A stretch of DNA of 39,792 nucleotides. Source: a virus (Duplodnaviria; Heunggongvirae; Uroviricota; Caudoviricetes). The DNA lies in IMG/VR virus record IMGVR_UViG_2703718791_000008, positions 1 to 39,792 of that record; one strand, given 5' to 3'. A program made the position numbers. Shown here one piece after another: positions 27,001 through 30,000 of the stretch (positions are counted from its first letter, which is position 1; each line of letters opens with the position of its first letter).

Positions 27001-30000
27001 AGTATCCCGCACTACCAGCGGATGTTCCGTAGGCAATGCCAGTAGAGATTTTGTCCATTGATTTCATAGCAACGCCTCCGCAAGTAACGGATTGCGTAGT
27101 TCTTATATTGGGAAGGGGAAAAAAGAAGGCCGCGGCATAACTATCACTGATGAGTTCAGGATAGCCAGTGGCTACGGCTCAGTTATGGTGCTGGTTAACG
27201 GACTTGAACCGCTACCCATTCGCTTACAAGGCGACTGCTCTACCATTGGAGCTAAACCAGCATATTTGGCGGGACAGCGTGGACTCGAACCACGATAAGA
27301 AGGTTAACAGCCTTCCGTAATGACCTTTATACGACTGACCCAAATAAAAAAAGCCACCGTTGCAACTTAAGAGTCACTAACGGCAGCTTACATCTTTAAA
27401 CGGTATGATATTTCATTCTGGCTGCCTCAAAAGCCGCAGCGGCAAGTTCTGCTGTGTCATGGTATCCAAGGTTAATACACTTTCCAGACGCATTAATTCT
27501 TGCTCTCCATTTCCCGTACTTAGCATCCCAAGACACGCCACGGTACCCAGATTTATTATTCTTCTGAATTTTCCTGTTCTGCATATTTTCGGAATGAGTG
27601 ACAAGACGAAGATTTGATATCCGGTTATCTGTTCTTACCCTGTTGATGTGATCAATAATGCCATCGGGCATGGTGCCATAAACAATCAACCATGCCAGTC
27701 TGTGAGCAGGGTATGCTTTACCATTAAGCATAATCATTAAATACCCACCAGAACTTATTGATGAGCATTTCTTGAAAGCAAAACGAGAGTTCCATGTCAA
27801 AGTAGTCCTCTCTCTCCCCCGCCTCCATTTCCAGTGAAAGTCGCCTGATGATGGATTGTAATCAACAACAGAAAGCACCATTTCTGGCGTTAATTTTATT
27901 CTTTCATCGCTTTACCTTAGGGATAGAGCCTGTTCGCGTAGATATGACAGCCAAGAGCGGAGCGATGTTTCCACCACCATATCTCAGGCCCATATCACTA
28001 AGACTCTTGTTTTGATTGCACGCGAATGCAAAAAAGCCCACAGGAGGTGGGCTTGTGATGGTTGCTGAATGCAAAAGCAGCAGCATATGCGAATAGTGTT
28101 GCTCATTTGCTCAATGATGTCAACACGTTCTATGCTACATGTTTAATTTTCTCTACACGTTTCCGGTTTTTAAACGCACTATCCAGAACCGGGTAAATCA
28201 TAAACAACGAGGCATTAAGGATTTCGTCAACTTCCCGTCGACAGGTTGCGAGCGATGGTTTTTGAATGCGCCCGCCGCCCCGGCATAACATCTTGCGAGG
28301 TCTTGCGACGCGATGATAGTAAGATGCAATGGCGTGCCTGGAAGAACCATGAGCGTAGTAGCTGAGGAGGATGCCAAAGGCTTTCTTGTCAATGTACATG
28401 ACGGAATCGACGACCTGAGAAATCAACATTCCATCATCATCATTACACATTGGCCTTGTCATAACTCTTCCCGGCTCTACGCTCTCCATGAACTTCGCTA
28501 TTACGCTGCTCATGCGCTTTTCCAGACGACCTGAATAAACCCATGCGCCCCACAGTTCAAGCCAGCCATTCAGCCACTCATGCTGTTCTTTGGTGAGGTT
28601 TAGTTCTCTTATGCCCACGCGCCTTCTCCCTGTACCTGAATCAATGTGAGATTTCCGCAGAACACTGCCCCAGTATCGATATACATCTGGTTGGCAAATT
28701 TGAGTGGTTTCACTGCTGGCGTATGACCAAAGATAAACGTGTCCGCGCCTTTAATTTCTTTAACGATCCCGTCTTGTGAGTTGCTGATTCGTTCGCGGTT
28801 CCAGATTACCTGCTGATGATCAACTGGCTTTCCAAATTCGTATTCGTCACAAGGATAATCGGCGTGGCAGATGACATATTTTTTACCTTTGCTCACCAGT
28901 TCGATGATTAACGGAAGTTCTTCTGCTTTATGGGCAAGAGCTTTAGCCAGAATTTCTTTGTCGTAATCGAGATTAAAGAACCAGCCACCGCCATTAAGCA
29001 GCCAGTGATTAACGTTTCCACGCTCTGATAAGCCATCAATCATCATTTGCTCATGGTTTCCACGTACAGCTCTGAACCAGGGGAATGTGATTAATTCCAG
29101 GCATTCAACGTTCTCTGCACCACGATCAACCAAATCGCCCACCGAGATAAGCAGGTCTTTTTTGTTGTCGAATCCAATCGTATCCAGTTTGTTCATCAGG
29201 TTCGTGTAGCATCCGTGCAGATCGCCAACTACCCAAATATTTCGGTATTTTCTGCCATCAATTCTTTCGTAGATATTCATGCAGCCTCACTTCTGCTGTT
29301 TCGCAGTTTTTTAAGTTTCTGTTGATACTCCGCCTTGATGGTCCTGCACTCTTCGACAGTCCAGCGATGGCGGTTATGGTTTGATTCGATTTCGTCTACT
29401 GCTTCCTGCCCGATGCGGTTAATCAGTTCGACGCGATACGGAACGAGATTTCCGCTTTTGTGCTGGTTGCACACCACGCATTGCTTGTGAATATTGCGTT
29501 CATCAAATCGGAGTTGAGGTGCCGCAGCAGTTGTCCGGTAATGTCCGGCATCCCACTGAGCAGACGTGAGCGTTCCGCACGAGATACATGGTAAGTCGCA
29601 GTCTCTTTCTCTGATGAAGGCGTTTACGGCTTGTTGGGCTTGTTTAATCCAGTAACTGCGGGGCTTTAAGGCGAGTTTTCGAATCTTCAGTTTATCTTTC
29701 TGTTTCTGCTCCTCTCGTCGTCGTTTCTTCTCTGCTGCTTTTTCCGCTTTTTCGCGTTCTTTACTTCGTCGTTCGAGTGCTATCTTGGTTCCACACTCTG
29801 GAGAGCACCACCACTGATTAGCGAATGCAGGGTGAAACCATTCCCGACATTCATCGTTTTTACATCGTCTTCGCGCTGGTTTAGCCATCGTCTTCTTCCT
29901 CGTACATTGAGCTATTCGGATCGCTCATCAGTTCTGCGCAGCAATCGGAGCACACGTGAACTTCCAGCACATGCAGCTTCTTACCGCAGTTAGCGCACGT

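Follow-up and report, generated by a model that had tools for sequence, protein, structure and literature searches.

A tRNA pair predicted to resist OLD-type nucleases and a probable homing-type HNH cassette with a structured leader RNA downstream of a phage-21-type late promoter

The viral record IMGVR_UViG_2703718791_000008 (Caudoviricetes) was analyzed over its positions 1 to 39,792, a stretch of 39,792 nt which is called the window in the following. Between the late antiterminator gene Q and the holin gene S of the lysis cassette it harbors two tRNA genes and a gene for an HNH endonuclease. We consider it likely that this Q-to-S interval is a mosaic of known modules, consisting of a functional tRNA pair, in which tRNA-Thr and, as we infer, tRNA-Asn would be resistant to OLD-family nucleases, and of a homing-type HNH cassette, all under the control of the late promoter pR'. 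The interval is read from the constitutive pR' once Q makes RNA polymerase terminator-resistant. A more far-reaching proposal, to which we give about even chances, is that the whole tRNA-Asn/tRNA-Thr pair is a two-tRNA counter-measure against OLD-family nucleases and, jointly, that the folded leader RNA of the HNH gene represents an undescribed class of cis-regulatory RNAs in temperate enterobacterial phages.

Organization and transcription of the Q-to-S interval

The genes are transcribed from the minus strand in the order Q, HNH, tRNA-Asn, tRNA-Thr, holin. A first-pass annotation had listed two tandem tRNAs with the anticodons GUU and UGU and a free-standing HNH/AP2 gene between Q and the lysis cassette; the span given for them, 27186-27881, is bounded precisely by the HNH start codon and the 3' end of tRNA-Thr. 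Both tRNAs, which lie on the minus strand, were confirmed by the proposed ARAGORN search and by Rfam; no other tRNA gene was detected by ARAGORN in the 39.8-kb window. Pfam matches to Q, to the HNH gene and to the lysis genes confirmed the position of the endonuclease gene. The annotation was also right in stating that the interval carries no toxin gene: no toxin-like family was matched, and the HNH open reading frame (ORF) is the only one in the interval with a family match.

The Q21-type antiterminator gene (162 aa; 28130-28618, minus) matches Pfam Phage_antitermQ with 85.6 bits, and the region comprising Q and pR' (28080-28631) is 98.4% identical to phage 21 at the nucleotide level. In pR' (28081-28123, minus) the -35 box TTGACA is located at 28123-28118, the Q-binding element ATTGAGCAAATGAGCA at 28115-28100 and the -10 box at 28100-28095; the start site is at approximately 28088, followed by the sigma-dependent pause element TATGCTG at 28087-28081. 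Down to the start site every base is the same as in the annotated region of phage 21 (OL657228), the late-region features of which cite PMID 1704887, 31455742 and 31663818. The pause element reads TATGCT in the window and TAAGCT in phage 21, and the -10-like pattern TAnnnT is preserved. Thus, all components of a phage-21-type Q-dependent late promoter were found, namely a Q21 gene, a -35 box, tandem Q-binding elements, a -10 box and a pause element. A scan for sigma-70 promoters revealed none at the right place and strand for the HNH gene or the tRNAs, and the total number of matches was not above that in shuffled sequences. Inspection of the leader by eye for sigma-54, sigma-E or operator-like sites gave nothing convincing.

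Three terminators or terminator-like hairpins follow. The first one after pR', T1 (28026-28055, minus), was detected by the terminator scan (match at 28054-28034) and by folding; it consists of AAGCCCACcuccuGUGGGCUU followed by U6 and is strong. In Hafnia phage yong1 the leader and T1 alone act as tR' ahead of the holin gene. T2 (27342-27389, minus) aligns to the annotated tR' of phage 21 (L001 1761-1808) and folds with -20.2 kcal/mol (z -3.35), followed by U7. T3 (27119-27178, minus) is a terminator-like hairpin at 27178-27129 followed by CUUCUUUUUU; its fold of -23.4 kcal/mol (z -4.3) was not equalled in stability by any of 200 shuffled sequences. The segment 27124-27184 is kept in HK629, E2348/69 and BTP1, and the T3 element is also present in Serratia loci. 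A point against T3 as a terminator is that it was seen by folding only, the terminator scan giving no match there. In loci without tRNAs, about 250-300 nt of sequence without identification lie between T2 and the T3 element.

Since the constitutive pR' transcript halts at T1, an RNA of about 60 nt (28028-28088, minus) with a 5' hairpin and a terminator hairpin is expected; it has no match in Rfam. In its origin this RNA would be analogous to StxS, the short regulatory pR' transcript of Shiga toxin (Stx) phages (PMC7547250).

The tRNAs are intact and widespread among phages

tRNA-Asn (GUU; 27267-27341, minus) and tRNA-Thr (UGU; 27186-27261, minus) match the Rfam tRNA family (RF00005, gathering score 29) over the full length with 55.3 bits (E 7.9e-11) and 61.5 bits (E 1.6e-12), respectively. 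Both genes encode the CCA end. tRNA-Thr has the discriminator A73, a clean acceptor stem and a mismatch, G27·A43, in the anticodon stem; tRNA-Asn has the discriminator G73 and the mismatches U4·U69 and U13·U22. In E. coli, the identity elements for the asparaginyl-tRNA synthetase (AsnRS) are G34, U35, U36 and G73, and those for the threonyl-tRNA synthetase (ThrRS) are G1-C72, C2-G71, G35 and U36. Reading of the two sequences revealed that these elements are present, tRNA-Asn ending in CCCG-CCA and carrying GUU, and tRNA-Thr starting with GC, ending in GC-A-CCA and carrying UGU. Judged by these features, both should be functional phage tRNAs.

The two tRNAs are 100% identical to the pair of phage 21 (76/76 positions for tRNA-Thr), and at 97-100% identity the pair is found in dozens of phage records, such as phage 21, SfI, BTP1 and P22-like Salmonella phages, and in roughly one fifth of complete E. 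coli genomes. Tandem tRNAs with the anticodons GUU (Asn) and UGU (Thr) after Q were described in the SfI genome paper, where Sf6, ST64T, PS3 and p21 are listed likewise (PMC3636060). The host genes are much less similar, asnT being identical to the phage tRNA-Asn at 48 of 76 positions and thrU to the phage tRNA-Thr at 55 of 76, which argues that the phage tRNAs are not recent copies of host genes. Five IMG/VR loci (L025, L030, L031, L047 and L050) contain a chimeric tRNA-Thr, the 5' third of which is phage-like while the 3' two-thirds resemble host thrU; the 5' strand of the anticodon stem is of the host type as well. Such chimeras suggest that phage and host tRNA genes have recombined.

Proposed resistance to OLD-family nucleases and codon supply

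P2-OLD was recently shown to cut tRNA at paired CNG motifs (nt 28-30 and 40-42), for which A37 is needed too (PMC12445682, 2025). According to the same study, phage tRNA-Thr(UGU) rescues the cells, its resistance depends on a change of the CNG motif together with a shortening of the anticodon stem, and the tRNA-Thr of phage 21 (tRNA-Thr21) protects against P2-OLD. Host tRNA-Asn(GUU) served there as a comparison substrate, which was cleaved more slowly, and the residual sickness of rescued cells was put down to "other affected tRNAs".

Both published features of OLD resistance, together with the UGU anticodon, are present in the tRNA-Thr of the window. It has UCG at nt 28-30 and CGA at nt 40-42, where host thrU has CUG and CAG, and G27·A43 removes one pair, leaving an anticodon stem of 4 bp. 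For tRNA-Thr, replacement of the OLD-sensitive host tRNA is the best-supported mechanism, since it was shown for the identical sequence of phage 21. For tRNA-Asn we infer a similar role with respect to the slower OLD substrate, because host asnT carries the paired motif CGG/CCG (and A37), which was lost from the phage copy: here the corresponding triplets are AAG/CUU in an anticodon stem GAAGG/CCUUC without CNG.

In the proposed mechanism, tRNA-Thr would be a nuclease-resistant stand-in for host tRNA-ThrU, which alone reads ACA and is attacked first by defence nucleases of the OLD family such as P2-OLD, and would thus sustain the translation of ACA-rich late genes. The tRNAs, bracketed by T2 and T3, would be released by normal tRNA processing, and this bracketing implies that they are made mainly after Q has acted. 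Some observations weigh against resistance to OLD as the role of the pair. The anticodon stem of phage tRNA-Asn has the full 5 bp, whereas for tRNA-Thr both changes were needed for resistance, and only tRNA-Thr(UGU) rescued the toxicity, and this partially (PMC12445682). Further, the search for a RecBCD inhibitor, the trigger of P2-OLD, covered the pL side only up to the end of the window about 1.5 kb past the N-like gene, and both the presence of such an inhibitor and an encounter of this phage with OLD-type defences lie beyond what the window shows.

Two other explanations were weighed against OLD resistance. One is that the tRNAs are only codon supplements for the late genes, without any role against defence nucleases. 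Both are located within the late operon, and ACA is the commonest Thr codon of the window (33% of the Thr codons, 19.1 per 1000 codons; 21.3 per 1000 in late genes), compared to 19% and 12.3 per 1000 in a 49-kb sample of K-12; the SfI authors reported the same ACA bias (PMC3636060). The codon comparison suggested by the first-pass annotation thus agrees well with tRNA-Thr. For tRNA-Asn it is weak, since the excess of Asn codons is small (49.4 vs 44.6 per 1000 in the K-12 sample), and the SfI authors left this tRNA without explanation. Moreover, the identical tRNA-Thr does protect against P2-OLD, and precisely the CNG motifs of the host versions were lost from both phage tRNAs. An exclusive role in codon supply therefore appears rather unlikely to us. 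The two roles do not exclude each other, as dependence on ACA is what makes ThrU a good target.

The other explanation, already raised in the first-pass annotation, is that one tRNA is degenerate because of a U-U mismatch in its acceptor stem. The mismatch itself is real. It is the U4·U69 of tRNA-Asn, which is the second tRNA along the plus strand and not the second to be transcribed but the first. With U13·U22 this makes two non-standard pairs, and the low identity to host asnT could also be taken as a sign of decay. We nevertheless regard a decaying pseudo-tRNA as very improbable. U4·U69 is not a trace of decay, because tRNA-Asn is unchanged, mismatch included, in 20 of 20 loci of E. coli, Shigella and Salmonella phages, the flanks of which have diverged. 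Its score is well above the gathering score, the encoded CCA, G73, the GUU anticodon and with them the AsnRS identity elements are kept, and the window and BTP1 agree at 98.9% in the tRNA block but at only 90% and 83% in the genes for the endolysin and Q, respectively. Resistance to OLD-family nucleases, established for the tRNA-Thr sequence and predicted for tRNA-Asn, thus remains the reading we prefer for the pair.

A free-standing HNH cassette, probably of the homing type

The HNH ORF (161 aa; 27396-27881, minus) matches Pfam HNH_3 with 68 bits (cut-off 24.8) and AP2 with 35.3 bits (cut-off 33.3), and belongs to PHROG 99 (HNH endonuclease; 1.9e-71). All family-invariant positions are intact, including D77, H78, N86, N90, N99 and N102, which are invariant across 16 relatives. 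An AlphaFold2 (AF2) model of the protein (pLDDT 84.6) was matched by Foldseek to I-HmuI (1U3E_M) with a probability of 1.00 and a root-mean-square deviation of 3.1 Å over 105 columns. As in I-HmuI, the model has a beta-beta-alpha-metal fold with an N-terminal DNA-binding sheet; its C-terminal domain superposes on AP2/ERF DNA-binding domains. At the sequence level the match to I-HmuI is weak.

Comparison with phage 21 shows that a segment of approximately 700 bp, which is absent from that phage, lies exactly between the pR' start site and the phage 21 terminator T2. It comprises a short leader, T1, a conserved untranslated region of 125 nt and the HNH ORF. The two blocks shared with phage 21 (28080-28631 and 26300-27390) are 95.7-98.4% identical and abut in phage 21 with an 8-bp overlap; both junctions of the segment in the window carry the 8-bp repeat TA(A/T)GCTGC, and the HNH stop codon TAA is part of TAAGCTGC, the sequence which in phage 21 directly follows the start site. 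At this one site the cassette is present in the window, in HK629 and in E2348/69, and absent from phage 21, BTP1 and SfI. It is 97.5% identical to that of HK629, the Q gene of which is only 87% identical. In PhiR12 phages an HNH remnant of 22 codons is left, and a relative with 47% identity occupies a different slot, next to recT.

In Serratia, Pantoea and metagenomic phages, more distant relatives with identities as low as 53% are always located about 205-225 nt past a Q21-family gene, irrespective of the lysis or packaging module behind it. Such constant linkage means that the cassette either is strictly site-specific or has long been inherited together with the Q module. The tRNAs and the HNH gene are independent modules, because the latter occurs with and without the former: among the HNH-bearing IMG/VR loci, 16 have tRNAs and 23 do not. 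The order of the window, with the HNH gene followed by both tRNAs, was also found in the prophage of enteropathogenic E. coli (EPEC) E2348/69 and in 23 other complete E. coli genomes.

By these sequence comparisons, the segment consisting of leader, T1, 5' untranslated region (5'-UTR) and HNH gene is a free-standing, I-HmuI-like, homing-type endonuclease cassette, which most likely persists as a selfish element. The enzyme would nick or cut cassette-free alleles, into which the cassette would then be copied by repair, and its expression would be doubly locked, by T1 upstream and by pairing of the leader RNA with the ribosome-binding site. Against active homing it can be held that the data fit equally well if the cassette is inherited vertically and now and then deleted between the 8-bp repeats, and that its stable linkage to Q21, seen down to 53% identity, could reflect some benefit to the phage.

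In the window the start of the HNH gene is damaged. The family norm and the closest protein clusters have 170 aa. A 1-bp deletion in an A-run (27899-27904) has turned the normal start, which is preceded by the Shine-Dalgarno sequence (SD) AAGG, into an ORF of three codons (MKE*; ATG AAA GAA TAA at 27896-27907, minus), and the remaining ORF of 161 aa starts 14 nt past the stop codon of the short one, without an SD of its own. HK629, E2348/69 and all IMG/VR loci read ATGAAAGAAATAAAA at this place and encode 170 aa; the deletion is unique to the window among about 50 loci (ORF offset 62 vs 63 in all others). Either the lesion is genuine or the homopolymer was misread in sequencing. Because the normal start codon was removed, expression should be weak, and unless the deletion is an error of sequencing, this phage probably makes little or none of the enzyme.

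It is a possibility to be reckoned with, although we do not favour it, that the HNH gene of the window has recently become a pseudogene, or is strongly attenuated, and that the cassette is a passenger without any contribution here. This would fit the uniqueness of the lesion, which destroys an SD-preceded start, the poor context of the remaining ORF and the uniform 170 aa of all close relatives. However, the rest of the ORF is intact and over its 161 aa 100% identical to two other loci (L038 and L062), the nine lost N-terminal residues are poorly conserved, the relative P0005 also begins with MVLSV, ribosomes could re-initiate behind so short an upstream ORF, and the deletion may be an artefact. 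A packaging accessory of the HK97 gp74 type, acting with the terminase at cos or pac, a link which the first-pass annotation had suggested to test, is hardly tenable. Admittedly, the HNH gene lies in the late operon, and in some cos phages HNH proteins reportedly assist the terminase. For the HK97 gp74 type one would expect a small HNH gene of the PF01844 type next to terS or cos, whereas the protein studied here belongs to the HNH_3+AP2 family and matches I-HmuI. Its gene is separated from terS (24817-24230) by 2.6 kb and five genes, including those for the holin, the endolysin, Rz and another ORF. It is missing from phage 21, BTP1 and SfI between the same flanks, and it is combined with at least five packaging/portal modules (lambda-type in HK629, Terminase_2/3 with P22_portal or Phage_portal_3, Sf6_terminase, GP3_package), so that it comes and goes independently of the packaging module. 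The constant linkage to Q21 across these modules and the distance from terS argue against a role in packaging. We therefore keep to a homing-type cassette, the nuclease of which may be poorly expressed in this particular phage.

As a separate observation, six loci from Serratia, Pantoea and metagenomic prophages (L008, L009, L010, L015, L017 and L019) harbor a second, different HNH_3 gene beside ninG, a few hundred bases upstream of Q and in addition to the HNH-AP2 gene downstream of Q.

A structured leader RNA preceding the HNH gene

The region between T1 and the HNH gene (27905-28031, minus) corresponds at the RNA level to a hairpin with the invariant loop UUCGCG followed by a long irregular hairpin, the basal helix of which (about 20 bp) pairs with the SD AAGG of the HNH gene. 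The stretch from Q to HNH is 83-87% identical between loci in which Q is 73-76% and HNH 61-69% identical; the leader is thus more conserved than the genes downstream. In an alignment of 17 distinct leader sequences, 98.7% of the cells are paired, compared to 94.0±0.6 in shuffled alignments (0 of 500 as high) and to 28-52% in slid controls; as the 17 sequences are related, the shuffle counts are not probabilities. Six pairs changed on both sides, and the SD is paired in 16 of the 17 individual folds.

A covariance model built from sequences of the leader finds a single copy in the window (119 bits) and, outside the training set, two divergent copies, one before a Rha-family gene (in Hafnia phage yong1) and one before a different His-Me HNH gene. 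The leader, with a length of about 125-137 nt, is also present in about 40 other IMG/VR contigs (L075-L117) and in Klebsiella phage Kp4856-1; copies were located in L073 (2476-2612), L074 (1035-1167) and L079 (9718-9850 and 10612-10739). In these other places it always follows an intrinsic terminator of unrelated sequence, in the late operon, and precedes genes for KilA-N proteins of four subfamilies. Across the leader types the basal helix has four different sequences, all of which stay paired.

Three alternative interpretations of the region were rejected. It is not a cargo-independent element, as every complete copy precedes an ORF and the HNH-less copies are deletion remnants (PhiR12) or the leader with T1 alone (yong1). 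It is not a known RNA (StxS-like, riboswitch, ribozyme or HEARO): in a search of Rfam 15 there was no match to the leader at E <= 1 in the region 26800-28300 of the window and none at E <= 0.1 in the leader-bearing HK629, Serratia and Klebsiella loci. The only sub-threshold matches were a resemblance of T1 to the Trp leader and a fragment of the small-subunit (SSU) rRNA. Finally, an ORF of 60 aa (28086-27904, minus), which begins at +3 of the pR' transcript, extends across T1 and at its end overlaps the ancestral HNH start by an ATGA, was rejected as coding, because indels of lengths other than multiples of three break its frame in Serratia, Pantoea and other loci. The core sequence of the leader was not found in any of the papers covered by a text search. 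A scan of a genome collection with the leader motif gave no match, to which we attach little weight since the collection holds one genome per species, and matches to the 16-mer TTGCATTCGCGTGCAA were mostly due to chance.

From its position and fold we suggest that the leader and the terminator form a double lock, the terminator blocking transcription that is not antiterminated and the leader blocking translation. As a portable device, this lock could keep small cargo genes for DNA-binding proteins or nucleases, whose products may be toxic, silent as long as they are not reached by antiterminated late transcription; the cargo comprises HNH-AP2, another His-Me HNH, four KilA-N subfamilies and Rha. 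RNase III cutting in the basal helix or a trans-acting factor might expose the buried ribosome-binding site.

Comparison with known phages and enzymes

The closest relative of the interval is phage 21 (OL657228; Guo, Kainz & Roberts 1991, PMID 1704887). It shares with the window the Q gene (98.4%), the pR' elements, T2, both tRNAs and the S21/SAR-endolysin/Rz block (95.7% identical, window 26300-27390). It differs in that it lacks the leader/T1/HNH segment and has tR', which is T2, directly after the start site. In contrast, HK629 (JQ182735, HK629_061) and EPEC E2348/69 (NC_011601, E2348C_RS13490) have the leader/T1/5'-UTR/HNH segment at 97.3-97.9% identity and T2 after the HNH gene, in E2348/69 also with the tRNA pair right after it. 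Unlike the window they have another Q allele (87% identity) and an HNH protein of 170 aa, and HK629 lacks the tRNAs and has a lambda-type holin.

I-HmuI, the HNH homing/nicking endonuclease of Bacillus phage SPO1 (PDB 1U3E), resembles the HNH protein in that the N-terminal beta-sheet and the HNH motif superpose, and HNH-AP2 homing endonucleases resemble it in the C-terminal AP2 DNA-binding domain. I-HmuI is encoded in a group I intron, has a helix-turn-helix C-terminal domain and shows only 21% sequence identity, while the gene of the window is free-standing in an intergenic slot and its endonuclease activity is predicted.

The Q-to-S interval of Stx phage 933W contains pR', tR', the tRNA genes ileZ-argN-argO and stx2AB. 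The comparison with Stx phages drawn in the first-pass annotation holds on the basis of this established knowledge: the slot is the same, and in both cases a constitutive pR' is stopped at a nearby terminator, tRNAs are present and a cargo gene depends on Q. The tRNA species and the Q allele of 933W are different, and the window has no toxin.

Other features of the window

Downstream of the interval lies a phage-21-type lysis cassette (25897-27067, minus; Pfam Phage_holin_2_1, Phage_lysozyme and Phage_lysis), encoding the S21 pinholin (27067-26852), the SAR (signal-arrest-release) endolysin (26852-26355) and Rz/Rz1 (26370-25897), all on the minus strand. The window is strongly mosaic: its regulatory and lysis half is 95-98% phage-21-like, while the structural and packaging half (1-25000) shows hardly any similarity at the nucleotide level to any of 50,697 phage records, among which a Vibrio phage comes closest with 13% covered at 69.8%. 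Between an N-like gene and the gene of a CI-like repressor (HTH_3 and Peptidase_S24), which we take to be nearly identical to lambda CI, two ORFs (35547-37051, plus) occupy the slot of lambda rexAB. The first contains DUF6932 and matches the PADLOC candidate PDC-M63A (2.2e-10), and no family matches the second (309 aa); the two possibly constitute a defence cassette carried by the prophage. An Acyl_transf_3 protein of 382 aa (667-1815, plus), encoded where the late region ends, resembles the O-antigen acetyltransferases of serotype-converting phages.

Significance

Annotated genomes and papers already contain the tRNA pair and the HNH gene, and also the combination of the two. Apparently unrecorded is only the particular mosaic of phage-21 Q/pR', HK629-type cassette, tRNAs and S21 lysis genes; none of the phage records covers 80% of the Q-to-S interval. 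The item that is undescribed and most worth attention is the structured leader of the HNH gene.

The analysis places a tRNA-Thr identical to a validated anti-OLD tRNA in a new phage background. Its long-unexplained partner tRNA-Asn gains a concrete prediction, since the OLD cleavage motif of the host tRNA was lost from the phage copy. In addition, the placement of an HNH cassette between the start site of a promoter and the terminator belonging to it was resolved to the single base. Last, a strongly conserved folded leader appears to be common to unrelated late-operon accessory genes. If this is true, it would constitute a new family of regulatory RNAs and could help to understand by what means selfish or toxic cargo genes are kept silent in phages.

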